Assembly (NCBI GenBank): GCA_944390825.1
Contig: CALXRG010000007.1
Coordinates: 35,245 to 99,244 of the forward strand
From: an uncultured Akkermansia sp.
Lineage (GTDB): Bacteria; Verrucomicrobiota; Verrucomicrobiia; Verrucomicrobiales; Akkermansiaceae
Length of the DNA stretch: 64,000 nt
Direction of reading: 5' to 3'
This document shows, in pieces, positions 15,896 to 49,061 of the stretch. The translations under genes and the position numbers were made by a program. Position 1 is the first letter of the stretch; each line of letters starts with the position of its first letter. The notes beneath the pieces were generated by a model. That model was given only the letters and a program-made list of their open reading frames with translations. It had not been told where the DNA came from and made no database searches.

Positions 15896-19108
<3,213 letters not shown>

Positions 19109-19454
19109 GAGTTTGAGTGTAAACTTGCAGATATATGCCACACATCACCCGAAAAAGCAAGACAAATATACGGTTGCGTCCCGAAAATGCGACTGCATCA
19201 CGAAATACGTGGCCGCATCGCAAAATGCGCCATACTGCAGAACGCCATGCTGCAGAAGGTTCACCCCAAGCATGCCATCCGCCGCATAGCTCCAGCAGCT
19301 GCCGCCGGGCCTCTTCATCCGATCCTGTGTCCGTCCCCGCGCCCCTGCATCCGGTTTATACCCATCCCCTGCATCCGCCCCAGGCCCATCCCCTGCACCA
19401 GCCGTGAATCAACCGGAAACAGGCAGGAGAATCACCCCCTCCCGCACAATGAGC

Positions 19455-19483
19455 TGGACTTCACTCTAGAATTCACCTATACT
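19455..19483 (+). promoter_or_regulatory. sigma70-like promoter of the CoA-transferase
   Basis: TGGACT-17-TATACT; ATG 9 nt downstream. Confidence 0.7.
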
Positions 19484-19492
19484 GACGGCACC

Positions 19493-20974
19493 ATGCGATA
19501 TCCGACTCTCACGGCAGAAGAAGCAGCGGCCCTGATCCAGGATGGCGACTGCATCGGCATGAGCGGCTTCACGAACGCAGGAGCCCCGAAGGTACTGCCC
19601 ACCGCCATAGCCGAGCGCGCGAAGGCGGAACATGAAGCCGGGCGCCCGTTCAGGCTGACGGTCATGACCGGCGCCAGCACCAGCACCCTGGTAGACGGCG
19701 TGCTATCAGCCGCTGATTGTGTGGAGCGTTTCATGCCTTACCAGGCCAGCAAAGAAACCCGTGACGCCATCAACGCAGGGCGCATCAAATACATCGACTG
19801 CCACGTATCGCTCATGGCGCAGGATATGCGCTACGCCCACCTGCCGCAGGTCCGCACGGCCATCATTGAGGTGTGCGCGGTGACAGATGACGGCGAGCTC
19901 ACGCTGACAGCCAGCGGCGGCAACTCCCCTACCTTCTGCATGCTGGCTGATCGTATTATCCTGGAGCTCAACACCTACCACAAACCTGAAATCCGCGAGA
20001 TCCACGACATCTACGTACCGAAGGATCCGCCCAACCGGGGTGAAATCGCTGTCTATGCCGCCGACTCCCGCGTCGGCACCAAAACCCTCAAAGTAGACCC
20101 GGCCAAAATCGTCGGCGTTGTCTACACCCATACCAAAGACGGCATCCCGGGTTTCAAACCATCCACCGGCGCCACGGATATCATCGGCGAGCACATTGCT
20201 CAATTTCTGGCGGAAGAATACCGCCTTGGCCGCATCCCGGAGTGCTTCCTGCCCATACAGAGCGGCGTAGGCAACGTCGCCAACGCCGTGCTGAGCGCTC
20301 TGGCCCGCAACAAAGACATCCCGAACTTCAAGATGTACACCGAAGTCATCCAGGATTCGGCGATTGCACTGCTGCGCAGCGGGCGCTGCACCTTTGCGTC
20401 CGGCTGCTCCCTGTCGGTGTCCGACGACGTACTGGCTGAAATCTACGAGCACTTTGACTTATACAAAGACAAACTGCTGCTGCGGCCGCAGGAAGTCACC
20501 AACAACCCCGAAATGGCCCGCAACATTGGCCTCATCTGCACCAATACAGCTATCGAGGTCGATATCTTCGGCAACGTCAACTCCTCCCACTTCTTCGGCA
20601 CCACGATCATGAACGGCATCGGCGGCAGCGGCGATTTCGCCCGTGCCGCAGCCTACACGATTTTCATGTGCCCATCGACGGCCAAGGGTGGCGCCATCTC
20701 CTCCATCGTCCCGATGGTGAGCCACACCGATCACACAGAGCACGATGTCGCCATCGTTGTGACCGAACAGGGAGTGGCCGACCTGCGGGGAAAATGCCCG
20801 CGTGAACGCGCGGAGCTCATCATCGAGCACTGTGCCCACCCCGACTATCGCCCGCTGCTGCGCGAGTACCTGGCCCTCACGCCCACCGGCCATACGCCGC
20901 ACTGCCTGCGCAAAGCCTTCGAGATGCACACCACCTACCTTGAACAGGGGGATATGCGCCTGACCAAATTCTGA
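19493..20974 (+). CDS. Acetyl-CoA hydrolase/transferase family (succinate CoA-transferase-like)
   Basis: GMSGFT, IQSGVGN, EVDIFGNVNSS, NGIGGSGDF and IVPMVSHTDH motifs; the real start lies inside the 17381..20974 ORF. Confidence 0.92.
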   Translation: MRYPTLTAEEAAALIQDGDCIGMSGFTNAGAPKVLPTAIAERAKAEHEAGRPFRLTVMTGASTSTLVDGVLSAADCVERFMPYQASKETRDAINAGRIKYIDCHVSLMAQDMRYAHLPQVRTAIIEVCAVTDDGELTLTASGGNSPTFCMLADRIILELNTYHKPEIREIHDIYVPKDPPNRGEIAVYAADSRVGTKTLKVDPAKIVGVVYTHTKDGIPGFKPSTGATDIIGEHIAQFLAEEYRLGRIPECFLPIQSGVGNVANAVLSALARNKDIPNFKMYTEVIQDSAIALLRSGRCTFASGCSLSVSDDVLAEIYEHFDLYKDKLLLRPQEVTNNPEMARNIGLICTNTAIEVDIFGNVNSSHFFGTTIMNGIGGSGDFARAAAYTIFMCPSTAKGGAISSIVPMVSHTDHTEHDVAIVVTEQGVADLRGKCPRERAELIIEHCAHPDYRPLLREYLALTPTGHTPHCLRKAFEMHTTYLEQGDMRLTKF

Positions 20975-20980
20975 GGTGCT

Positions 20981-21040
20981 CAGCATCCTGCGCAGTCTGA
21001 GGCAATCAGGATCCTGCGCCGTCTGAAGCGATCAGGATAC
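20981..21040. repeat. Degenerate 26-bp tandem repeat (about 2.5 units) just after the stop codon
   Basis: cagcatcctgcgcagtctgaggcaat / caggatcctgcgccgtctgaagcgat / caggatac... Confidence 0.7.
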
Positions 21041-21148
21041 CGTGCAGCCGGAATACCGTGAGCAGCACAGGAGTATACGTACACATGTATCCCCGGCGCG
21101 ACCGGCGGGGAAATCACGGGTTTGGCGGCACCTGTGCGCAGTTCCCCC

Positions 21149-21177
21149 TTGACTTCAGGCATGGCTTCCCCTATAAA
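21149..21177 (+). promoter_or_regulatory. sigma70-like promoter of the large ankyrin gene
   Basis: TTGACT-17-TATAAA. Confidence 0.75.
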
Positions 21178-21201
21178 GGAAAAAGCCCCTTCTGATGGGG
21201 C

Positions 21202-24003
21202 ATGCTCACTTCTCTCTTTGCCGTGGATACCAAGTATTACTTCACCAATGCCCAGCGAAAAATCCTGGGGCCGTGTACTCTCCGGGAGATTCTGCGTCTG
21301 GCGCAGCAGGGTGAAGTAGACGCGCAAACCGCAATTGTCCGACCGGCTGACAGTCCGCACTGGATGTCGTTCCTCGCCGCATTGCAGCGGGATGTCAGCG
21401 CTCAGGCTGCCCCCGCGGCGCACCAGGCTCCGGCAGTCACCCCCGGACAGTATGCTGAGAAAAGCATCACCTTCCGGGTTTCACCCCAGACGCCCTCCGC
21501 GGCCCGGGTAACCCAGTCATCACAGGCGATACAGGCAGGCCGCGGGGCAGGACTGAATCCCGCAGCTGCACCCGGGGGTGTACCCGCCCCAGGCACAACT
21601 ATCGGCAACACCGCATCAAAGCCCCCGCGATCCCAGGTCAACTTCCGGGCCCCGCAGTTGCCCGGCAATGAAGCCGTGAACTCCCTATCATCCGGCGCAG
21701 GTCCCGCAATCACCAGCCCTGCCCCGGCAGCGGGGACACCATCCCCGGCACAACCTCCTTCCGCGCCGAAGCCGCCGGATGCAGCGACGATGGCTCCGCC
21801 GGCAGCGGCAACAATACCGCCACAAGCACCATCCACACCCGGCACACCTCCCCCGGTAACCCCGCTTCCTTCACCGCAACCGGGGGTATCCCGGTCAGCG
21901 TCTGCCCGGTCTGCGTCTGTATGTGCCGCCAAGCCTGCCCGGCCCGTTGGCACCCGGCCTGCGGGAAATGCAGCGAAGCGGACACGCAGCCGGGGCTGTT
22001 TCATTGCTACGGGTGTGTTGTTTGCCTGCTGTGCAGTGGCCGCGGTTGCCGGTTACCGCTATGCGGCGCAGTTGCAGGGGGCGCTGGACAGGCTGCATGC
22101 GGAACTGCGGGCGACTCTGCCCACAGAGTGGGCCACCCGCCTGCCGGAATCGTTCACACTCCCGATTTTCGGCTGTGCCGGGTCAGAAGAGCAAGCTGTG
22201 GAACTCAGCCCGACCGAGCAGCTGTTCCAAGCCATCCGCCTGCAGAACATTCCCGATCTCAAAAAACTGTTGCAGTCTGATTTCCTGGCACAGGAGCAGA
22301 CCGTTTTCTTCCAGGGGCGCACCCCGCTCACGCTGGCAGCTGAGCATGGTCTGGCAGATGAAGCGGAGGTGTTGCTGCTGTATTCACGGGGCAATCCCGA
22401 ACTCTATGACTGCCCGACGGGACTGAATGCGATGCAGATCGCTGCTTACCACGGGCAAGTGAACGTGGTGAAGCTGCTGTTGCGGCACCAGTGCGCGATG
22501 CAGACGCAGGATTCACCCTTCTCCGCGATGGATTGTGCTGCTGCCCGCGGCCAGGACAGTATCATCCGTATTCTGACGGATGCGGGAGCGCCTCCACCCC
22601 GTGAGCTGGATGCCGCCGACCGTCTCGCCCTGGCCGCAATGGCCCAGGATGAACAGGGGGTGGCGGATCTGCTGGCTCAGGGTACGGATGTCAATGCAGC
22701 CGATGCAGAAGGCCGTACTGCGCTCCACCGCCTGGCGGCAGCCGGGCAGCACGGGGCGCTGCGCCTGCTGCTGTCCAAGGGGGCCGACCCGCAGCGCACG
22801 ACAGCTCGCGGCTGCACTCCCCTGCACATTGCGGCCGAGAATAACCGCGCGGAATCTCTGGCGATTCTGCTGGCCAAGGGAGCTCCGATCGCGGCGGTGG
22901 ATCGCATGGGCTCGACTGCGCTGCACCTGGCAGCGGCCAGAGGCGCGGAGCAGGCAGCGGCGGTGTTGCTGGCCCAGGGGGCGGACATACGGGCAGTGAA
23001 TCTCCAGGGGTACACGCCGCTGCATCTGGCGGGCACGCCGGCTATGGCGGAGCTGCTGATTGCCCACGGGGCGGACCCGAAGGTGACTGCTGCGAAAGAC
23101 GGGCGCACGCCGTTGCATCTGGCAGTGGCAGCGGGCAATGCCGATGTGGTGGCCCTGCTATTATCTGCCGGGGCGGACATCCAAGCGGCCGATACCGAGG
23201 GCAACACAGCGCTGCACGTGGCAGCCGGACAGGGTGATACGCGACTGATGGGGCTGCTGCTGGAGCGCGGAGCGACGCTGTCCGGCCTGAATGCTCACGG
23301 GCAGACGCCGCTGCATCTGGCTGCATCTGCCGGTGCCACACCGGCGGTGAAGTGGCTGCTGCTCAAGGCGTGTGACCCCAATGCCCGCGATCAGTACGGC
23401 AACACGCCGGTACACATGGCCGCACGCAGCAATCAACCGGCAGTCATTGCCCCGCTGGTCTTCAAGGGAGCCGACGTCAACCTGCCCAACAACCAGAACA
23501 GCACCCCGCTGATGCTGGCTGCGGAAAACGGCGCCTCTGCGGCAATGGAAACGCTGCTGGCCAAGGGGGCAAAGCCCGAAGCAACCATGCCGAACGGCAC
23601 CAATGCCCTGCATCTGGCGGCCAGACAGGGCCAAACGGATGCCGTCAGGCTGCTGCTGGACAGGGGCGCGGCTATCGATCAACTCGACGGCCAGGGCTAC
23701 TCGGCACTGCTGCTGGCGGTGGAAAAAGGCAAGGCGGACACGGTTGAGCTGCTGCTAAGCCGGGGTGCCAACCACGGGCTGAGGATCAACAGCGGTTTCA
23801 CGGCGCTGCACCTCGCCGCATATGAGGGGCATGAGCCGGTGCTCCGTCTGCTGCTCCGGTATGGGGCAGACCCCACCGCGACCAACAACTTCGGCAAAAC
23901 CCCGCTGGATGTGGCCCGCAACTGCAACCGGACAGGTCTTATCCCCGTCCTGGAGCAGGCAGAGGAAAACGCCAGGCAGGCGGACAGTGCGCTGCTTCCC
24001 TGA
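21202..24003 (+). CDS. GYF_2-like domain + Pro/Ala linker + TM helix + about 17 ankyrin repeats
   Basis: YYFTNAQRKILGPCTLREI...W N-terminus; single hydrophobic helix GCFIATGVLFACCAVAAVAGY; repeated G-x-T-(P/A)-L-H-x-A-A units. Confidence 0.9.
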   Translation: MLTSLFAVDTKYYFTNAQRKILGPCTLREILRLAQQGEVDAQTAIVRPADSPHWMSFLAALQRDVSAQAAPAAHQAPAVTPGQYAEKSITFRVSPQTPSAARVTQSSQAIQAGRGAGLNPAAAPGGVPAPGTTIGNTASKPPRSQVNFRAPQLPGNEAVNSLSSGAGPAITSPAPAAGTPSPAQPPSAPKPPDAATMAPPAAATIPPQAPSTPGTPPPVTPLPSPQPGVSRSASARSASVCAAKPARPVGTRPAGNAAKRTRSRGCFIATGVLFACCAVAAVAGYRYAAQLQGALDRLHAELRATLPTEWATRLPESFTLPIFGCAGSEEQAVELSPTEQLFQAIRLQNIPDLKKLLQSDFLAQEQTVFFQGRTPLTLAAEHGLADEAEVLLLYSRGNPELYDCPTGLNAMQIAAYHGQVNVVKLLLRHQCAMQTQDSPFSAMDCAAARGQDSIIRILTDAGAPPPRELDAADRLALAAMAQDEQGVADLLAQGTDVNAADAEGRTALHRLAAAGQHGALRLLLSKGADPQRTTARGCTPLHIAAENNRAESLAILLAKGAPIAAVDRMGSTALHLAAARGAEQAAAVLLAQGADIRAVNLQGYTPLHLAGTPAMAELLIAHGADPKVTAAKDGRTPLHLAVAAGNADVVALLLSAGADIQAADTEGNTALHVAAGQGDTRLMGLLLERGATLSGLNAHGQTPLHLAASAGATPAVKWLLLKACDPNARDQYGNTPVHMAARSNQPAVIAPLVFKGADVNLPNNQNSTPLMLAAENGASAAMETLLAKGAKPEATMPNGTNALHLAARQGQTDAVRLLLDRGAAIDQLDGQGYSALLLAVEKGKADTVELLLSRGANHGLRINSGFTALHLAAYEGHEPVLRLLLRYGADPTATNNFGKTPLDVARNCNRTGLIPVLEQAEENARQADSALLP

Positions 24004-42364: not shown

Positions 42365-42913
42365 ATGCTTACTTCCATCTTTTCTCCTCAGCAATGCTCC
42401 ACGTGCAAACTCTGCTGCAACTTTCACCGCAGCTCCTCTTGGGAAACACCATTCCTTGAACCCGACCTGGTGCGGCAGTTGCAGGTGTTCCATGTGGAAC
42501 TTTTGAAACGACCCGATGGATCCTTCACATTTAAGCTTCCCTTTCAAACAAACAGTGACTCCGAATCCGCGAATTGTCCCATGCTTGACCCATCGAGCGG
42601 GTGCCGTCTTCCCCGGGAGCAACGCCCCTTCGAGTGTCGCATCTGGCCACTGCGCGTGATGAGGCTGGAAACCGGGTCTGCTGTTCTGGGGTGTTATGAA
42701 GCCTGTCCGGCCCTGGATGCTGCTACATTTGCCAAGCTCAGCGACTTTGCTCACGTGTCATTGCGGCAGCTTATCGTCGATCACGCTATGCGTTTTCCCC
42801 AGACCATCCGGTCATATCATCCACACTACCGCATTTTGGAAGCTCTGCCTGAACTCGACGGTTCGGATTCTTCCTTTGCAGGAACAGCAGATAACCGTTC
42901 CCTTTCTGAGTAG
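42365..42913 (+). CDS. YkgJ-family cysteine-cluster protein
   Basis: CSTCKLCC ... CPMLD...GC...RPFECRIWP. Confidence 0.8.
   Translation: MLTSIFSPQQCSTCKLCCNFHRSSSWETPFLEPDLVRQLQVFHVELLKRPDGSFTFKLPFQTNSDSESANCPMLDPSSGCRLPREQRPFECRIWPLRVMRLETGSAVLGCYEACPALDAATFAKLSDFAHVSLRQLIVDHAMRFPQTIRSYHPHYRILEALPELDGSDSSFAGTADNRSLSE
42486..42501. promoter_or_regulatory. parS: parS-like site (inside the YkgJ ORF)
   Basis: TGTTCCATGTGGAACT compared with the known consensus TGTT(T/C)CACGTG(A/G)AACA. Confidence 0.6.
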
Positions 42914-43262
42914 TGCGTGCGCCCCCCCCTGCCCTCGTGCGTATATTCAGCGACCTCTCCCAGCTCCATCAATACATGCAGCAAGCTCACCTGGAAGCTG
43001 ATCCTGCGCTTTCGCAAAGCTGCCCCTTCGAGGTGAACAGTGGGATCTGTTTCCCAACAGGAGACATCATCGCACAAACCATTCACAGCAAAAAAGCAGT
43101 TTTCCTTCAAGACTGGCAAGCAGCGCACGCTGCGCTGAGGCCGACAGCCGGGCATGTGATCTCGTCTTCACAGCAACGGTGATAAAAACAATAAAAAGCG
43201 TGGTCTCTGCCGTACCACGCTTTTTAATGCCATCTTGCTGCATCGCTACAGCCGAAAAGTTC

Positions 43263-43440
43263 ACCGCTGTGCCGTCAGTGGATGAAGAGCCACGTTCCCT
43301 TCAGTAAGGTGGGTGCGAAGCCAGGATTTATCTGAGGTATCCCCTATTGGGACGGAACATCAAATCCTGATACTTGAATGCCCCATGTTTGATAACAACG
43401 GTCCGGGCCTTGAGGTCCACGCGTCACGAGCACAGCAGCT
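43263..43440 (-). ncRNA. ssrS: 6S RNA
   Basis: About 178 nt. The 5' GCUGCUGUGC pairs fully with the 3' GCACAGCGGU; GUGGA/UCCAC, UGGG-GC/GC-A-CCCA and CAGGAUUU/AAAUCCUG form a rod with a central bubble; a promoter places the start at about 43440. Confidence 0.82.
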
Positions 43441-43446
43441 GTCTTA

Positions 43447-43475
43447 TATATAGCATGGCACCCCACTTTCTGCAA
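43447..43475 (-). promoter_or_regulatory. Promoter of the 6S RNA
   Basis: Minus strand TTGCAG-17-TATATA with TGC extended -10. Confidence 0.55.
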
Positions 43476-43529
43476 GTATTTTCTTCGCTTTTTAGCATAA
43501 CAGGTATTCATCACAGGCAGTATAAGTAT

Positions 43530-43545
43530 TGTTCCATATGGAACA
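43530..43545. promoter_or_regulatory. parS: parS-like site between the 6S and argS promoters
   Basis: Perfect 16-bp palindrome TGTTCCATATGGAACA, identical to 47034-47049. Confidence 0.75.
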
Positions 43546-43567
43546 TCTGGTTTCATTTGACATTGAT

Positions 43568-43596
43568 TTGACAAAACTATGAGAAATGTGTATAAA
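43568..43596 (+). promoter_or_regulatory. sigma70-like promoter of argS
   Basis: TTGACA-17-TATAAA, 14 nt before the ATG. Confidence 0.8.
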
Positions 43597-43610
43597 GAGC
43601 TCAGCATACC

Positions 43611-45365
43611 ATGACGATACCGACATTACTTTCTGAACAACTGACAACGTCACTGGCGAAGGTATTGGGTGATACCCTGCCGGCAGGTTTTGAAGCGAGT
43701 GTAACTGCTTCCCAGGACCTGCGCTTTGGCGACTACCAGAGCAACGCTGCCATGATGCTGGCCAAACAAGCAAAGATGAACCCACGCGCCTTGGCGACTC
43801 AGGTGGCAGAGGCTTTTGGTGAGAGTGAAATTGCTACGGCCGAGATTGCCGGCCCTGGATTCATCAATTTCCGCGTGAAACCATCGTATTTTGCGAAGCG
43901 CGCACAAATGATGCTTGGTGATGAGCGGTTGGGTGTTGCTAAGACGTCTCAGCCGAAAACGCTGGTGATTGATTTCTCTGCTCCGAATGTGGCGAAGCCG
44001 ATGCACGTTGGTCATATCCGCTCGACTATTATCGGCGACACTCTTGGCCGCCTGGCACGTTTCATGGGGCACACGGTGATCACGGACAATCATATTGGGG
44101 ACTGGGGGACACAGTTCGGTATGATTCTCTGGGGCTGGAAAAACCTGCTGAAGCAGGAAGATCTGGAGAAAGACCCCATTGAAGCACTGCTGGCAGTTTA
44201 CAAGAAAGTGAACGCCATGTGCAAGGAGGACCCTGCTCTGCTTCCGGTGTGCAAGGAGGAACTGGTCAAACTTCAGAGCGGCGACAAAGAAAATCTCGAC
44301 ATCTGGAAACGCTGCATTGCTGTCACCAAAACAGGTCTGGAGAAGATTTACAACCAGCTGGATATCCATTTTGACTACTGGCTGGGCGAAAGCGCCTACA
44401 ATGATGCTCTGGCCCCGCTTGTTGATGATTTGCTGGCCAAAGGAATCGCACGTGTGAGCGACGGTGCTGTCTGTGTCTTTTCAGATGGCTTCCACAAGCC
44501 ACAGGAAGACCCCTTCCTCGTGCAGAAAGACGGTGAATGGGTTCCCGTACCAGCCATCATCCGCAAAGCGGACGGCGGATTCCTGTACGCCACGACAGAT
44601 CTTGCTACGCTGGATTACCGTACAAAGCATTTTCAAGCTGACTCAATCTGGTACGTTGTCGGCGCACCTCAGGAAAAACACTTCAAGCAGATCTTCGACA
44701 TCGAACGCATGCGCGGCGTAAGCGGTGACTTCCGTCACGTCGCTTTTGGTTCGATTCTGGGTAAGGATCGCCGTCCGTTCAAGACGCGTTCAGGAGACAC
44801 GGTAAGCCTCCAGGACGTCATCGATGAGGCAATTGCCCGAGCGACGAAAGTTGTCGAGGAGAAAAGTCCGGATATGCCCGAGGATGAAAAGTCACACGTG
44901 GCACAAATCGTGGGTATTGGCGCAATTAAGTTTGCTGAGCTGTCCCAGAATCGTCTGAGTGACTACATTTTTGACTGGGACAAGATGCTGGCGCTTACCG
45001 GCGACACAGCTCCCTATCTTCAAAACTCATACGTTCGCGTGCGCTCTATTTTCCGCAAAATTGACGGTGAATTTAAAGCACCGGCTTCTCTCACCCTGTC
45101 CGAGGATGCAGAAATTCACCTGGCCAGACTTTTGGTGCGTTATGCAGAAGTTGTCCCGTCTACACTGGATGATTGCAAGCCGAACCTGCTTGCCGCCTAC
45201 CTCTATGAATTGGCACGCGCCTTCCACAGCTTCTACGAGGCCTGCCCGGTTCTCCGCAGCGAAGGCGATGTGAGGGAGTCTCGCCTAGCTCTTTGTGAGC
45301 TCACGGCGCGCGTTCTCAAGCAAGGAATGGGTCTTCTCGGAATCGAAATGCCAGACCGCATGTAA
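43611..45365 (+). CDS. argS: Arginine--tRNA ligase
   Basis: FGDYQSN, DFSAPNVAKPMHVGHIRS, GDWGTQFG, FKTRSG, GDTAPYLQ and DALR anticodon domain. Confidence 0.97.
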   Translation: MTIPTLLSEQLTTSLAKVLGDTLPAGFEASVTASQDLRFGDYQSNAAMMLAKQAKMNPRALATQVAEAFGESEIATAEIAGPGFINFRVKPSYFAKRAQMMLGDERLGVAKTSQPKTLVIDFSAPNVAKPMHVGHIRSTIIGDTLGRLARFMGHTVITDNHIGDWGTQFGMILWGWKNLLKQEDLEKDPIEALLAVYKKVNAMCKEDPALLPVCKEELVKLQSGDKENLDIWKRCIAVTKTGLEKIYNQLDIHFDYWLGESAYNDALAPLVDDLLAKGIARVSDGAVCVFSDGFHKPQEDPFLVQKDGEWVPVPAIIRKADGGFLYATTDLATLDYRTKHFQADSIWYVVGAPQEKHFKQIFDIERMRGVSGDFRHVAFGSILGKDRRPFKTRSGDTVSLQDVIDEAIARATKVVEEKSPDMPEDEKSHVAQIVGIGAIKFAELSQNRLSDYIFDWDKMLALTGDTAPYLQNSYVRVRSIFRKIDGEFKAPASLTLSEDAEIHLARLLVRYAEVVPSTLDDCKPNLLAAYLYELARAFHSFYEACPVLRSEGDVRESRLALCELTARVLKQGMGLLGIEMPDRM

Positions 45366-45370
45366 TTCCT

Positions 45371-46885
45371 ATGTTTCACATGGAACATTTTTGCAAGGCT
45401 GCCGCAATGGTTGTTGCGGCAGCCTTGCCACTTTGGGCTGGGACGAAAAACGGCACGTGGTCGTTTTCACAAGCTGCTTCATCAACTTCGCCGAAGTCAA
45501 TCCTTATGCCGGGGGAATGTTTCGTGGCTATTCCTCAAGGCCAGGACGATGCTGAAGCGAGCGAGTTAACGAATCAAGCGCTGCAGGAGCTTCTTCTTGG
45601 GGATCAGGAGCAGGCTTTTCGCCTGTTGACGCAGGCGATTGATTTAGCTCCGGACTCACTTTTGCCGCATGCTGCGCTGCTGGCTACAGGCTTATTATCT
45701 GACGCGACTGCACAACAGGAGCATGTTGATCACATCAGGCATTTGATTACTCTGAATCCCATGTTGACGCCTGCGGAGGAAACGGCCATGGCGTGGCTCC
45801 TTGATCTCGCCCGCGGAGAACATAATGAGGCATTGAAGAAAATCCAGGCTCACACGCAACGCTACCGAAACGATGTCTATACGCGCTGCTGGGAAATATT
45901 GCTGCTGCATTATGCCGGTCCCGGTTACGATCTCCTGGGCAACGCGTCGCCTGATCAGCAGCAAGCCGAGCAGCAGGCTGCAACACTCTTCTCACAAAAA
46001 CCAGACAACGGCCTGTCCTGCTTTGTCCGTGCACTTGTCGAAGAAGGGCGCCCCACAGTCACAGCCGAAGCATGCGAGGCTGCAAAACGCGCGGCAGGTT
46101 TTCTTCCACATCATCCCATCGCTCAGCAACTCTGTGCCCATATGCTGTACCGAGCTGGCCACTATGAAAACGTGGGGCACTATCTGCAACTGGCTCAACA
46201 ATGTCTCGACCAGCGCGAGCAAGCAAGGGAAGGGGAGTCATCCCGCTCATTATCTGCTGAGCGCAGCATCCAGCTCAGGCTCTATGAGGCTACTCTCTAC
46301 TCGACGCTCCGCATGGAAAAGAAAGCACTTGCTTTAAGGCGTTCCCTGAACGCCATACCGCTGCTGACCGGAGAAAACGCCGCTCGGGCTGATCAAATTC
46401 TGCTTCGCTGGGAAGCCCATACACTGCCTTTGCGTATCCTGTTCCTGCCCGGAGTCAAGCTGACTTCCTCCTGGATAAAAGCAGCATCCCGCGCCGCCAC
46501 CGTACCCGATAACTGTACCATATCCCCGAACGAACAGCACGCTCTTCATTCCGTGCGGGATTGCCTGGAAGCTTCTCTGAACGCGATTCTCTTCGCCAAG
46601 TCCAAGCAATACAGCAAAGCCCAGCAACATCTCCAGAGAGCAGAAAGCTTCGCAAAGCAATTGCAAGAGCAGGCACCGGCAGCAGCCAGTTCGCACCCAT
46701 CGCTTAAGCGCTATCTGACACGCCAGCTGGAGGCCTGCACCATCGCCATCAATCTCGCGAAAAAAGCTATCCATCCTGAGCAGGCAGATACATGGAATGC
46801 TGCCATCCGTGATGCGACCAGACCCCCCTCGGTCATGTTGCCGCCAGTCATTCCTCCCGTCTGCGCTGACTCCAAGCCGTCTTAA
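45371..46885 (+). CDS. Exported alpha-helical (TPR-like) hypothetical protein; exact start uncertain
   Basis: Signal-like AMVVAAALPLWAG; Ala/Leu/Gln-rich helical repeats such as AFRLLTQAIDLAPD. Confidence 0.65.
   Translation: MFHMEHFCKAAAMVVAAALPLWAGTKNGTWSFSQAASSTSPKSILMPGECFVAIPQGQDDAEASELTNQALQELLLGDQEQAFRLLTQAIDLAPDSLLPHAALLATGLLSDATAQQEHVDHIRHLITLNPMLTPAEETAMAWLLDLARGEHNEALKKIQAHTQRYRNDVYTRCWEILLLHYAGPGYDLLGNASPDQQQAEQQAATLFSQKPDNGLSCFVRALVEEGRPTVTAEACEAAKRAAGFLPHHPIAQQLCAHMLYRAGHYENVGHYLQLAQQCLDQREQAREGESSRSLSAERSIQLRLYEATLYSTLRMEKKALALRRSLNAIPLLTGENAARADQILLRWEAHTLPLRILFLPGVKLTSSWIKAASRAATVPDNCTISPNEQHALHSVRDCLEASLNAILFAKSKQYSKAQQHLQRAESFAKQLQEQAPAAASSHPSLKRYLTRQLEACTIAINLAKKAIHPEQADTWNAAIRDATRPPSVMLPPVIPPVCADSKPS
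45372..45387. promoter_or_regulatory. parS: parS-like site just after the argS stop
   Basis: TGTTTCACATGGAACA. Confidence 0.7.
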
Positions 46886-47033
46886 ACAGCATTCGTAAGA
46901 CTCAGCAACCCCACAACGCAGACACGACAAACCCACAACCGCAGACACGAATATGCAACCCGGTTGTGGGCGGCTGATGCCTGCAGAAGTGGCTGTAAAG
47001 ATACCTGCAAAACGATGTTTAGGTTCCCCTTAA

Positions 47034-47049
47034 TGTTCCATATGGAACA
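47034..47049. promoter_or_regulatory. parS: parS-like site
   Basis: Perfect palindrome TGTTCCATATGGAACA in an intergenic spacer. Confidence 0.75.
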
Positions 47050-47120: not shown

Positions 47121-47756
47121 ATGAACCGAACAATGTTCCGTAAGGCTGTGCTGCTTCTGCTTCCGCTGCTTCTGCCTTCCTGCGCCTATCTCCAAACGCA
47201 CAAAAATATCAAGGAAATAGGTGCAGTATATGATGGCTTCGAGCTTGATAATACCACCACGCTATACCGCCAGGGTAATCAATGGTACATGGCAGTCAGC
47301 AAATGTAAAATGACAAAGGAGTATCCGGCGCTGCATGATAATGTCATGTTTACCGAGCAGAATCAGGATCCCCGGTTTGAAGAACTCACTGGTGTGGAAG
47401 GTAACAAACAGACCGTATACGTTCCTGTTTCCTCTGCCACGGCACAAGTTCTTCAACACAACAATGGTTATTTTACGAAGTCGGTTCTGCTGCAGGAGTT
47501 GAAAGATAACATATCCTTAGCCCGGACAACTTTGCCGGGCAAGTCAGCGCATTCCATTTGCGCTGCCGTTGAAGGAAAACAAACGTCCTTTACAATCGAC
47601 TCTTCGCGCAGTCCTCAAAAGCCCGGTGCAGCGCTGACGGCCGTCAGTTGGGTGGATCGGGTAGTCATCGACTGGCCCGGTACCTTGGTTTACAATGTCT
47701 GTATTCCCTTCATGGCACCCTTCGCCTTCTTCTCTGATTTCCTCTCAGACAATTGA
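47121..47756 (+). CDS. Hypothetical lipoprotein
   Basis: MNRTMFRKAVLLLLPLLLPSC lipoprotein signal; conserved-looking C-terminus VIDWPGTLVYN. Confidence 0.75.
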   Translation: MNRTMFRKAVLLLLPLLLPSCAYLQTHKNIKEIGAVYDGFELDNTTTLYRQGNQWYMAVSKCKMTKEYPALHDNVMFTEQNQDPRFEELTGVEGNKQTVYVPVSSATAQVLQHNNGYFTKSVLLQELKDNISLARTTLPGKSAHSICAAVEGKQTSFTIDSSRSPQKPGAALTAVSWVDRVVIDWPGTLVYNVCIPFMAPFAFFSDFLSDN

Positions 47757-48002
47757 TAATCAATCTGTTATATTCATATTAACCAAAATTGTGAATAAGT
47801 CTGTGAATAAAGCGTGCGTGGAACTGTGCGTAAGATTTACTCACGTTCTTCATTCTGGTATCAACCGACTTACTCACTGTGTCAGGCAGATGTAAAAAGT
47901 TGAATGCGAAGTCCAAAGTGCAGTTATCAACATATCAACACGGCTGATGACGATGAATTTATTTTAAGTATAAATTCATCTTTCAGCACTCACACATGAT
48001 AA
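47757..48002. other. Candidate replication origin (oriC): DnaA-box cluster plus AT-rich element
   Basis: TGTGAATAA at 47790 and 47802 (perfect TTWTNCACA on the minus strand); TGTGCGTAA at 47825 and TTATCAACA at 47924 (1 mismatch); TTACTCACG at 47837, TTACTCACT at 47870 and ATATCAACA at 47932 (2 mismatches); 24/29 A+T at 47952-47980; four parS-like sites within about 5 kb. Confidence 0.65.
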
Positions 48003-49061
48003 ATGAACATAGCGGAGGAAAGAGAAGCAGAAGATAAGCGCTGGATGCAGCGGGCAGTCAGTTTGGGCTACCGTGGTTGGGGCACCACAAGTCCCAATCC
48101 GCCTGTCGGGGCTGTTATCGTTAAAGGCGGCTGCGTCCTGGGTGAAGGCTTTCACGAGCGGGCAGGGGAACCTCATGCTGAACGCCGGGCTTTGGCTGAT
48201 GCCCGTGCTCGCGGTCATGCGTCTGAACTCCGTGGCGCCACGATTTATGTGACGCTTGAACCCTGTTCCAGCTATGGTCGCACGCCACCCTGCACAGATG
48301 CCATTCTTGAATCCGGCATCGCCCGGGTAGTCTATGGGGCGCAGGATCCTGATCCACGCCACCAGGGCCGCGCAGACGGGCTTTTACGGGCGGCCGGCAT
48401 CGATGTTTCAGCAGGGGTAGAGCAGGGGGCCTGTAAGCAGCTTCTGCGGCCCTGGATTTACGCCACCTTGCACAGACGCCCGTGGGTGCTGGCTAAGGTA
48501 GCATGCACGCTTGACGGAAGCATGGCCAGAAAGTACACCCGCTGGGTCAGCAGCCCGGAAGCTCTGGCGTACGCGCATGAGTGCCGCTTGCGCAGCGACG
48601 CTATTCTCGTGGGTGGTCAAACAGTGCGCAGCGATGACCCCTCGCTGACCATTCGGCAGCCCCTTTCTGCCATTCCTGAAAAAAAGCGCCAACCCTGGCG
48701 CATCGTCCTTACCCGCGACCCTCATTCCCTCCCACCCACGGCCAAGGTTTTCACAGACGCTTACGCTGAAAGAACCCTGGTGTACAGCAACGTCGCGAAT
48801 TTACCTGATCTGCTGGCTGAATTATACAGCCAATACGGCATTATCACGCTGATGCTTGAGTGCGGCGGACATTTGCTGCGGTCGTTTTTGGAAGAGCACC
48901 TGGTCAATGAATGGGTACAGGATATAGCGCCCATTTTAGCTGGCAACGGACAACCCATGCTTCCAGGAGGGTACTTGCCCGGTGAAGCCCATTTGGAAAT
49001 CTCCGAGATGCAGCAATGTGGCGTTGACCGCATCCTGCGCGGAATGATACGATACAGTTGA
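48003..49061 (+). CDS. ribD: Bifunctional riboflavin biosynthesis deaminase/reductase
   Basis: TSPNPPVGAVIVK, HAE, TLEPC...TPPC, TLDG, GGQTVRSDDPSLT, LECGG. Confidence 0.96.
   Translation: MNIAEEREAEDKRWMQRAVSLGYRGWGTTSPNPPVGAVIVKGGCVLGEGFHERAGEPHAERRALADARARGHASELRGATIYVTLEPCSSYGRTPPCTDAILESGIARVVYGAQDPDPRHQGRADGLLRAAGIDVSAGVEQGACKQLLRPWIYATLHRRPWVLAKVACTLDGSMARKYTRWVSSPEALAYAHECRLRSDAILVGGQTVRSDDPSLTIRQPLSAIPEKKRQPWRIVLTRDPHSLPPTAKVFTDAYAERTLVYSNVANLPDLLAELYSQYGIITLMLECGGHLLRSFLEEHLVNEWVQDIAPILAGNGQPMLPGGYLPGEAHLEISEMQQCGVDRILRGMIRYS

Follow-up and report, generated by a model that had tools for sequence, protein, structure and literature searches.

Our results indicate that the 246-bp gap at 47757-48002, located between a 211-aa ORF and ribD, is the chromosomal replication origin (oriC) of this Akkermansia species, a reading to which we give a probability of about 0.9 on computational evidence. 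The gap is part of the 64-kb stretch of DNA analysed here (contig C7:35245-99244, referred to as the window), which belongs to a draft genome of 2.32 Mb in 47 contigs; positions without a contig or genome name are those of the window. A previous reading of the same DNA, made from sequence only, had proposed an oriC unlinked from dnaA at this place, and the proposal is supported by our analysis, because the gap holds the strongest DnaA-box cluster of the genome, this cluster is orthologous to one that is conserved genus-wide and found at the skew minimum of complete genomes, where the skew switches sign, and it adjoins the only parS-like sites of the genome.

With this locus, an uncultured gut Akkermansia gains a well-supported candidate origin, and the genus as a whole would have its origin upstream of ribD, about 1 Mb away from dnaA. 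It is common practice to rotate complete Akkermansia genomes to dnaA, and the true origin is needed both for replichore analyses and for estimating growth rates from metagenome coverage. The genus-wide alignment also defines the parts of the locus, namely a 12-bp-phased box array, a periodic purine block bracketing an AT-rich core, and a parS-like site with a non-canonical core.

DnaA boxes and parS-like sites around the gap

The G+C content of the gap is 35.4%, against about 60% for the genome. The sequence-only reading had described two perfect boxes in direct repeat with a 12-bp period (47790 and 47802), two one-mismatch boxes (47825 and 47924) and three two-mismatch boxes (47837, 47870 and 47932), with the left boxes pointing one way and the right boxes the other. 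All of these were found where they had been placed, on the minus strand to the left and on the plus strand to the right (Table 1), and the TGTGAATAA boxes are perfect with respect to the relaxed consensus TTATNCACA, having one mismatch each to the strict TTATCCACA. The boxes of the tandem pair are separated by 3 bp, and those at 47837 and 47870 sit in an 11-nt direct repeat, 33 bp apart.

Table 1. Coordinates of the features in and around the proposed origin, in window positions
Feature	Position	Strand	Sequence or remark
parS-like palindrome 1 of 4	42486..42501		TGTTCCATGTGGAACT
parS-like palindrome 2 of 4	43530..43545		TGTTCCATATGGAACA; in the gap upstream of argS
parS-like palindrome 3 of 4	45372..45387		TGTTTCACATGGAACA; best match of the genome to canonical parS, 2 mismatches
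parS-like palindrome 4 of 4	47034..47049		TGTTCCATATGGAACA; 0.75 kb left of the boxes
211-aa ORF	47121..47756	+	left neighbour of the gap; termed lipoprotein in the sequence-only reading; no family match found
Left AT-rich flank	47752..47789		82% A+T; second least stable 30-mer of the region
DnaA box 1, phased array	47790..47798	-	TGTGAATAA
DnaA box 2, phased array	47802..47810	-	TGTGAATAA; 12-bp period from box 1
DnaA box, array position 4	47825..47833	-	TGTGCGTAA; 1 mismatch
Two weak DnaA boxes	47837..47878	+	TTACTCACG (47837), TTACTCACT (47870); two-mismatch
ribD-proximal box pair	47924..47940	+	TTATCAACA (47924-47932, 1 mismatch) / ATATCAACA (47932, two-mismatch); overlapping, 8-nt offset
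Three-base-periodic purine block	47946..47957	+	GAT GAC GAT GAA; middle position always A
AT-rich core, candidate unwinding element	47952..47980		perfect 11-bp inverted repeat GATGAATTTAT / ATAAATTCATC, 7-nt loop
ribD	48003..49061	+	right neighbour of the gap; TIGR00326, 5.5e-82; transcribed away from the gap

The relaxed consensus TTATNCACA occurs 5 times in the window, where 0.67 occurrences are expected, and 44 times in the whole 2.32-Mb genome. Under a first-order Markov model with the gap's own composition, the probability of two or more perfect boxes is 4.9e-4 and that of a cluster score at least as high is 6.5e-5. When the 2.32-Mb draft genome was scored in 300-bp windows, the gap ranked first, and neither the rest of the genome nor the 10 kb flanking the gap on each side had a better cluster. 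The runner-up clusters, C34:622 and C13:49486, were ruled out as origins, since both lie inside GC-rich coding repeats.

The same genome scan, which the sequence-only reading had recommended with special attention to dnaA, showed no cluster beside this gene. In agreement with the claim that no dnaA is found near the locus, the single dnaA copy is on another contig (C10:71856-73295), and its upstream gap has a single one-mismatch box. There is no box cluster at dnaA in this genome or in the complete genomes G007, G082 and G044, and no perfect box was found around dnaA. Among the higher-scoring clusters checked, the only other site that is both intergenic and AT-rich is the gap at C10:54773-55029, 17 kb upstream of dnaA, which contains TTATTCACA, TTATCCCCA and several two-mismatch boxes; as an origin this cluster was rejected, being weak and having no skew switch. 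The DnaA encoded at C10:71856-73295 reads GGRDHGTVIHA in its C-terminal DNA-binding domain. E. coli DnaA has GGRDHTTVLHA at that place, and the glycine presumably replaces the base-contacting threonine.

A second type of element accompanies the boxes. The pattern GTT[TC]CA[CT][AG]TG[GA]AAC has 4 matches in the 2.32-Mb genome, all of them at window 42486-47049 and at most 5.3 kb left of the gap, and the core of these palindromes is CA/TG instead of the CG of canonical parS. The ParB gene itself is far off, on C1:169134. In G007, G082, G044 and G137, a homologous site, TGTTCCACGTGGAACA, stands at a distance of about 0.4-2 kb from the ribD gap, and 508 kb of sampled G007 sequence contained no other. 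These putative ParB sites are independent support for an origin-proximal position of the gap. The gap upstream of argS (43429-43676) contains a single perfect box, TGTGTATAA, at 43587; it was considered as a second sub-origin and rejected, as it has one box and one parS-like site only.

The neighbourhood consists of housekeeping genes (argS, ribD, cysE and genes for a glycosyltransferase and a polyprenyl synthase), and no phage or plasmid genes were found near the gap. Gene order around the gap is kept across the genus: ribD is its right neighbour in all genomes examined, and a homologue of the 211-aa ORF stands upstream of the box cluster in most relatives. The start of ribD may be the ATG at 48045 instead of 48003, because the ribD family match begins at residue 15, which leaves the right edge of the gap uncertain. 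An imperfect 19-nt inverted repeat (74% complementary, 47726-47744 and 48015-48033) brackets the entire gap and is probably due to chance.

Conservation and GC skew across the genus

In a blastn search against 40 relatives, 13 genomes of the genus matched the sequence surrounding the two strong boxes. The tandem pattern TGTGNATAA-N3-TGTGNATAA, with at most 1 mismatch, is present in 70 of 121 genus genomes, compared to 1 match for a reversed control pattern, and its matches form two classes, one upstream of ribD and the other at a second locus. The 450 nt upstream of ribD were taken from 45 distinct sequences, and about 41 of these contain 2-5 perfect and 1-7 one-mismatch boxes in the same layout; the conservation that the sequence-only reading had asked about is thus found across the genus. 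Read towards ribD, the common layout starts with an AT-rich flank with TGATAATCAAT, one plus box and 5 nt, continues with 2-4 minus boxes at a 12-bp period, 2-3 weak plus boxes and a plus box pair, and ends, after 4-6 nt, with a periodic purine block terminating in GAA, an AT-rich core and, in most species, a promoter. Of the strong boxes of the genus, almost all have the sequence TTATTCACA and not TTATCCACA.

The gap described here is a box-poor version of this layout, with two perfect and two one-mismatch boxes, fewer good boxes than most relatives have. The plus-oriented TTATTCACA box located 5 nt ahead of the array in relatives is decayed here, as is array position 3 (about 47813-47821), and the minus-oriented array of the relatives has up to four boxes with the same 12-bp period. 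The weak boxes at 47837 and 47870 align with boxes conserved in relatives as TTcTTCAC and TTATTCAC/TTATTTAC, and the ribD-proximal pair is kept there as ..TTATTAAC-TTATTCACA. The number of two-mismatch boxes in the gap is by itself not significant (7 seen vs 4.3 expected); those at 47837, 47870 and 47932 gain weight because they align with conserved boxes of the relatives and because two of them form a direct repeat.

The second tandem-box locus (G000:C16:44306-44496, and L060-L064, L066, L067, L069, L071, L077, L078, L081, L082, L085, L088 and L089) lies between a 102-aa winged-helix-like ORF and a phage tail protein gene (phrog_394, 2e-39), and adjoins a portal/head-tail adaptor gene (phrog_332, 9e-86; podovirus-like) and rnhB/yraN-like ORFs. 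Its 12-bp-phased boxes are decayed in this genome (TGATTCACT, TTATTCTCT), and the locus may be a DnaA-controlled domesticated phage element.

A draft in 47 contigs gives no whole-chromosome skew curve, and for this reason the skew was taken from single-contig genomes of the genus. In G007 (3,175,525 bp), the skew is negative over 1-1.228 Mb, about zero over 1.228-1.248 Mb, positive to ~2.74 Mb and about zero at 2.88 Mb; the local cumulative minimum is at 1,238,001, three perfect boxes are at 1,237,894-1,237,948, ribD starts at about 1,238,109-1,238,115 and dnaA is at 422. G082 (3,055,113 bp) has its minimum at 1,111,001, boxes at 1,111,234-1,111,341 and dnaA at 385, while in G044 (3,497,179 bp) the rise begins at 426 kb, the boxes are at 425,063-425,248 and dnaA is at 2,806,986. 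In G137 (2,664,102 bp), where the gap is at 958.6 kb and dnaA at 2,266, the skew changes from -0.081 (938-958 kb) to +0.075 (959-979 kb), and the plus-to-minus switch occurs between 2.30 and 2.45 Mb. The skew test proposed by the sequence-only reading therefore came out in favor of the locus, with the minus-to-plus switch falling on the homologous gap, within 1-2 kb, in all four complete genomes, and at the cluster in 8 of 10 draft contigs (20 kb each side). The gene ribD always points away from the switch. The homologous gap is 0.96-1.24 Mb from dnaA in the four complete genomes, and this distance, together with the location of dnaA on a different contig here, suggests that dnaA was separated from the origin in the genus ancestor.

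The two draft contigs without a flip belong to G053 and G012. In both, G053:C59 (L162-L163) and G012:C27 (L170-L171), the ribD-upstream cluster is kept and the skew is positive on both sides, which suggests a recent inversion beside the origin.

The skew of the contig under study is -0.130 in the 20 kb to the left of the gap and +0.019 in the 16 kb to the right. The strong negative skew ends at ~C7:78-84 kb, the sign varies further to the right, with no steady positive run in the remaining 26 kb, and a two-term fit (gene strand plus replication side) places the best switch ~9 kb right of the gap, at window 56.7-57.7 kb, with strand statistics that rest on crude longest-ORF gene calls. An origin at this local switch, near window 57 kb, was rejected, since 57.0-57.7 kb has no boxes and a G+C content of 56%. 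A skew that is no more than weakly positive over the first 10-20 kb right of the origin is likewise seen in the complete genomes, and we read the pattern of this contig as noise and not as a contradiction, without counting it as independent support.

Some features of the contig and the genus concern strand composition more generally. At C7 ~18000-22000, 15 kb before the start of the window, the skew changes from plus to minus at ~20 kb, 63 kb left of the origin, which could be an inversion, an acquired segment or a binning/assembly join. Nearly all long ORFs at window 2568-47756 are on the plus strand, that is, directed towards the origin and head-on to a leftward fork. In 20 sampled pieces of G007, ~46% of coding bases are on the leading strand by crude ORF calls, and the genome under study has a mean coding-strand GC skew of -0.025. 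Genes around the origin are not preferentially oriented along the leading strand, and the genus seems to lack the usual gene bias towards that strand.

The AT-rich core, a possible mechanism and other readings of the cluster

The sequence-only reading had pointed to an 83% A+T stretch beside the boxes, and this was confirmed at 47955-47984; among all 30-mers of the region this one has the lowest computed stability, and in the 64-kb window only 15 positions reach that level of instability. As single-stranded DNA, the inverted repeat of the core folds at -10.4 kcal/mol (z = -5.75). Across the genus, the least stable DNA is the right-hand core segment in about three quarters of species and the left flank in the rest, and unwinding is therefore placed at the core, with the left flank kept as an alternative. 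At the left edge, the palindrome TTGATAATCAA (47752-47762) overlaps the stop codon of the upstream ORF; TGATAATCAAT is kept at this edge of the origin in several relatives, and the palindrome may be a protein-binding site.

The periodic purine block is found in the same place and register in nearly all species with an identifiable anchor, as 4-5 NAN triplets ending in GAA or GAG (for example GATGATGATGAA, TAGAAGAAGAAGGAA and TATTATTATGAA). The AT-rich core is bracketed by the block and, on the far side, by an inverted copy of it. In the species compared, the end of the block forms the left arm, and its complement follows 23-28 nt later as the right arm. Taken singly, the arm pairs are short and lack significance; what points to a real symmetric element is that the arms co-vary from species to species (GATGAT..ATCATC, GAAGAA..TTCTTC, GAAGGA..TCCTTC). 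The combination of a conserved purine block of three-base period and its inverted copy around an AT-rich core is possibly new. It could be speculated that the 4-5 NAN triplets (here GATGACGATGAA) and the co-varying inverted copy form a lineage-specific unwinding module, in which single strands would be captured via the non-canonical strand, via both strands symmetrically or by a new dimeric origin protein, but we regard this as rather unlikely. Two other explanations of the block were discarded: a leader mini-ORF, which the reading ATGATGATGAATTT... in some species would allow, but for which the homologue of the block in GAA-type species has no ATG, and a canonical DnaA-trio, for which the block is on the wrong strand.

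In the mechanism that we propose for this origin, DnaA-ATP would fill the strong boxes at 47790 and 47802 first, and would then spread cooperatively along the 12-bp-phased minus array and onto the plus boxes at 47837 and 47870 and the pair at 47924/47932. Two opposed DnaA oligomers would be formed in this way, as in E. coli oriC, from box sets that flank a 45-nt spacer. The resulting strain would open the palindromic, AT-rich core at 47952-47984, where the DNA is least stable, and the inverted copies of the periodic purine block around it may hold the opened strands. The helicase would be loaded at the core and forks would depart both ways. As transcription of ribD invariably runs away from the origin, it may assist the opening; the new origins would then be segregated by ParB bound at the four parS-like sites to the left.

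Transcription of ribD differs between this genome and its relatives. In most relatives, a consensus promoter (TTGACA-17-TACAAT) follows the AT-rich core, and because it ends 6-9 nt ahead of the ribD ATG, the ribD transcript would be nearly leaderless there. Comparison with L002, L047, L051, L086 and others showed that this promoter segment is absent from window 47981-48044, and ribD must therefore be read from within or beside the AT-rich core. No FMN riboswitch or other known RNA was found in the gap, the sole nearby Rfam match having E = 0.84.

As a fallback, the sequence-only reading had suggested a locus similar to datA or DARS, which would titrate or reactivate DnaA near the true origin or elsewhere without firing itself, and we consider this improbable. 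The datA and DARS1/2 sites of E. coli are DnaA-box clusters outside the dnaA region, as is the cluster described here, and such a role would be in line with the best-fit switch of the contig to the right of the gap and with the fact that this species has only two strong boxes. However, datA and DARS sites neither coincide with a skew switch, nor contain an unwinding element, nor are flanked by the only parS-like sites of a genome, whereas the loci homologous to our gap sit on the switch in the four complete relatives and the gap is accompanied by an unwinding-type core and parS-like sites. A cluster with a titrating role would be expected to lie away from the initiation site and not to unwind. 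The genome has no better cluster to offer, and the region of the local switch is devoid of boxes.

Even less probable is a role restricted to a DnaA-controlled promoter of ribD or of the upstream gene, in which the boxes would be operators without any part in replication. The boxes are directly upstream of ribD, the promoter of the relatives is strong, and the lack of an FMN riboswitch makes another control of ribD plausible. On the other hand, at least seven boxes in two opposed arrays far exceed the need of an operator, the box layout is kept independently of a promoter that the window lacks, and the skew switch of the complete genomes (4/4) and the parS-like cluster would be left unexplained. 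A promoter role and an origin role are compatible, and both can coexist at this locus. Finally, although 12-bp-phased tandem boxes also occur at the second conserved locus beside podovirus-like tail and portal genes, the housekeeping neighbours, the genus-wide synteny and the absence of phage or plasmid genes nearby make it extremely unlikely that the ribD-upstream cluster serves an integrated mobile element as its replication or regulatory region, a role that the second tandem-box class of the genus may have.

Comparison with known origins

Our search of the literature for a described or tested Akkermansia oriC found only a DoriC listing and general remarks, one paper stating that the origins of gut bacteria need not be at dnaA, while PMC6624636 treats dnaA as the Akkermansia origin. 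The DoriC entry, ORI94030296, is a predicted oriC of A. muciniphila ATCC BAA-835 (NC_010655) and is given in the supplement of PMC8287927, with its module at 958,674-958,698. The 24-mer listed there has one occurrence in 154 genus genomes, at G137:C1:958675-958698, and G137 was taken as NC_010655 because this coordinate is identical. Since the 24-mer lies inside the ribD-upstream gap of G137, an earlier prediction had put the origin of the type species at this homologous locus, a long way from dnaA.

The origin proposed here resembles ORI94030296 in its homologous locus, box layout, nearby parS-like sites and skew switch. The two belong to different species (ribD is 47% identical) and differ in the block, which is GAAGAAGAAG there and GATGACGATGA here, and in the number of perfect boxes, three there versus two here. 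ORI94030296 is itself a computational prediction, and as unwinding module the program of PMC8287927 chose another site, which scores low and lies mid-region. As this kind of locus is known from DoriC, our finding is not new in kind, and its modest added value is in the genus-wide anatomy.

With E. coli oriC, the proposed origin shares a position apart from dnaA, two opposed box sets, phased arrays and an AT-rich unwinding element at one end. Closely phased arrays in E. coli oriC are sites of cooperative DnaA-ATP binding. The differences are in the distance to dnaA (42 kb in E. coli versus about 1 Mb in Akkermansia), in the period of the array (11 bp versus 12 bp) and in the flanks, which are gidA/mioC in E. 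coli and the 211-aa ORF and ribD here. Unlike E. coli oriC, the gap has no GATC sites, and no IHF or Fis sites were identified in it.

The basal unwinding system of B. subtilis has tandem boxes at most 3 bp apart, as seen at 47790/47802, and a periodic block whose middle A is invariant, separated by 4-6 nt from the box pair before it and bordered directly by an AT-rich region, as seen on the ribD side of the gap. The notation in the supplement of PMC8287927, 3'-AATAGGTGT-(box)-spacer-GATGAT..-5', implies that trios belong to the strand that gives the box as TGTGGATAA, on the 5' side of the box, and a canonical DnaA-trio element was accordingly defined as at least 3 NAN trios within 16 nt of a box on that strand and side. 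By this definition no canonical element was found at the gap: the periodic A is conserved on the strand that shows the adjacent boxes as TTATNCACA, the reverse of the canonical geometry, and there is no run of three trios left of the box at 47790. On the canonical strand, 3'-TAC-5' occurs three times in a row only in GAT-type species; it is interrupted here (GAC) and absent in GAA-type species. Further differences from B. subtilis are that the block is repeated in inverted form beyond the AT-rich core and that the origin is not beside dnaA. The picture that results from these comparisons is that of an oriC with a periodic element beside its predicted unwinding site, which falls outside the canonical Bacillus-type definition.
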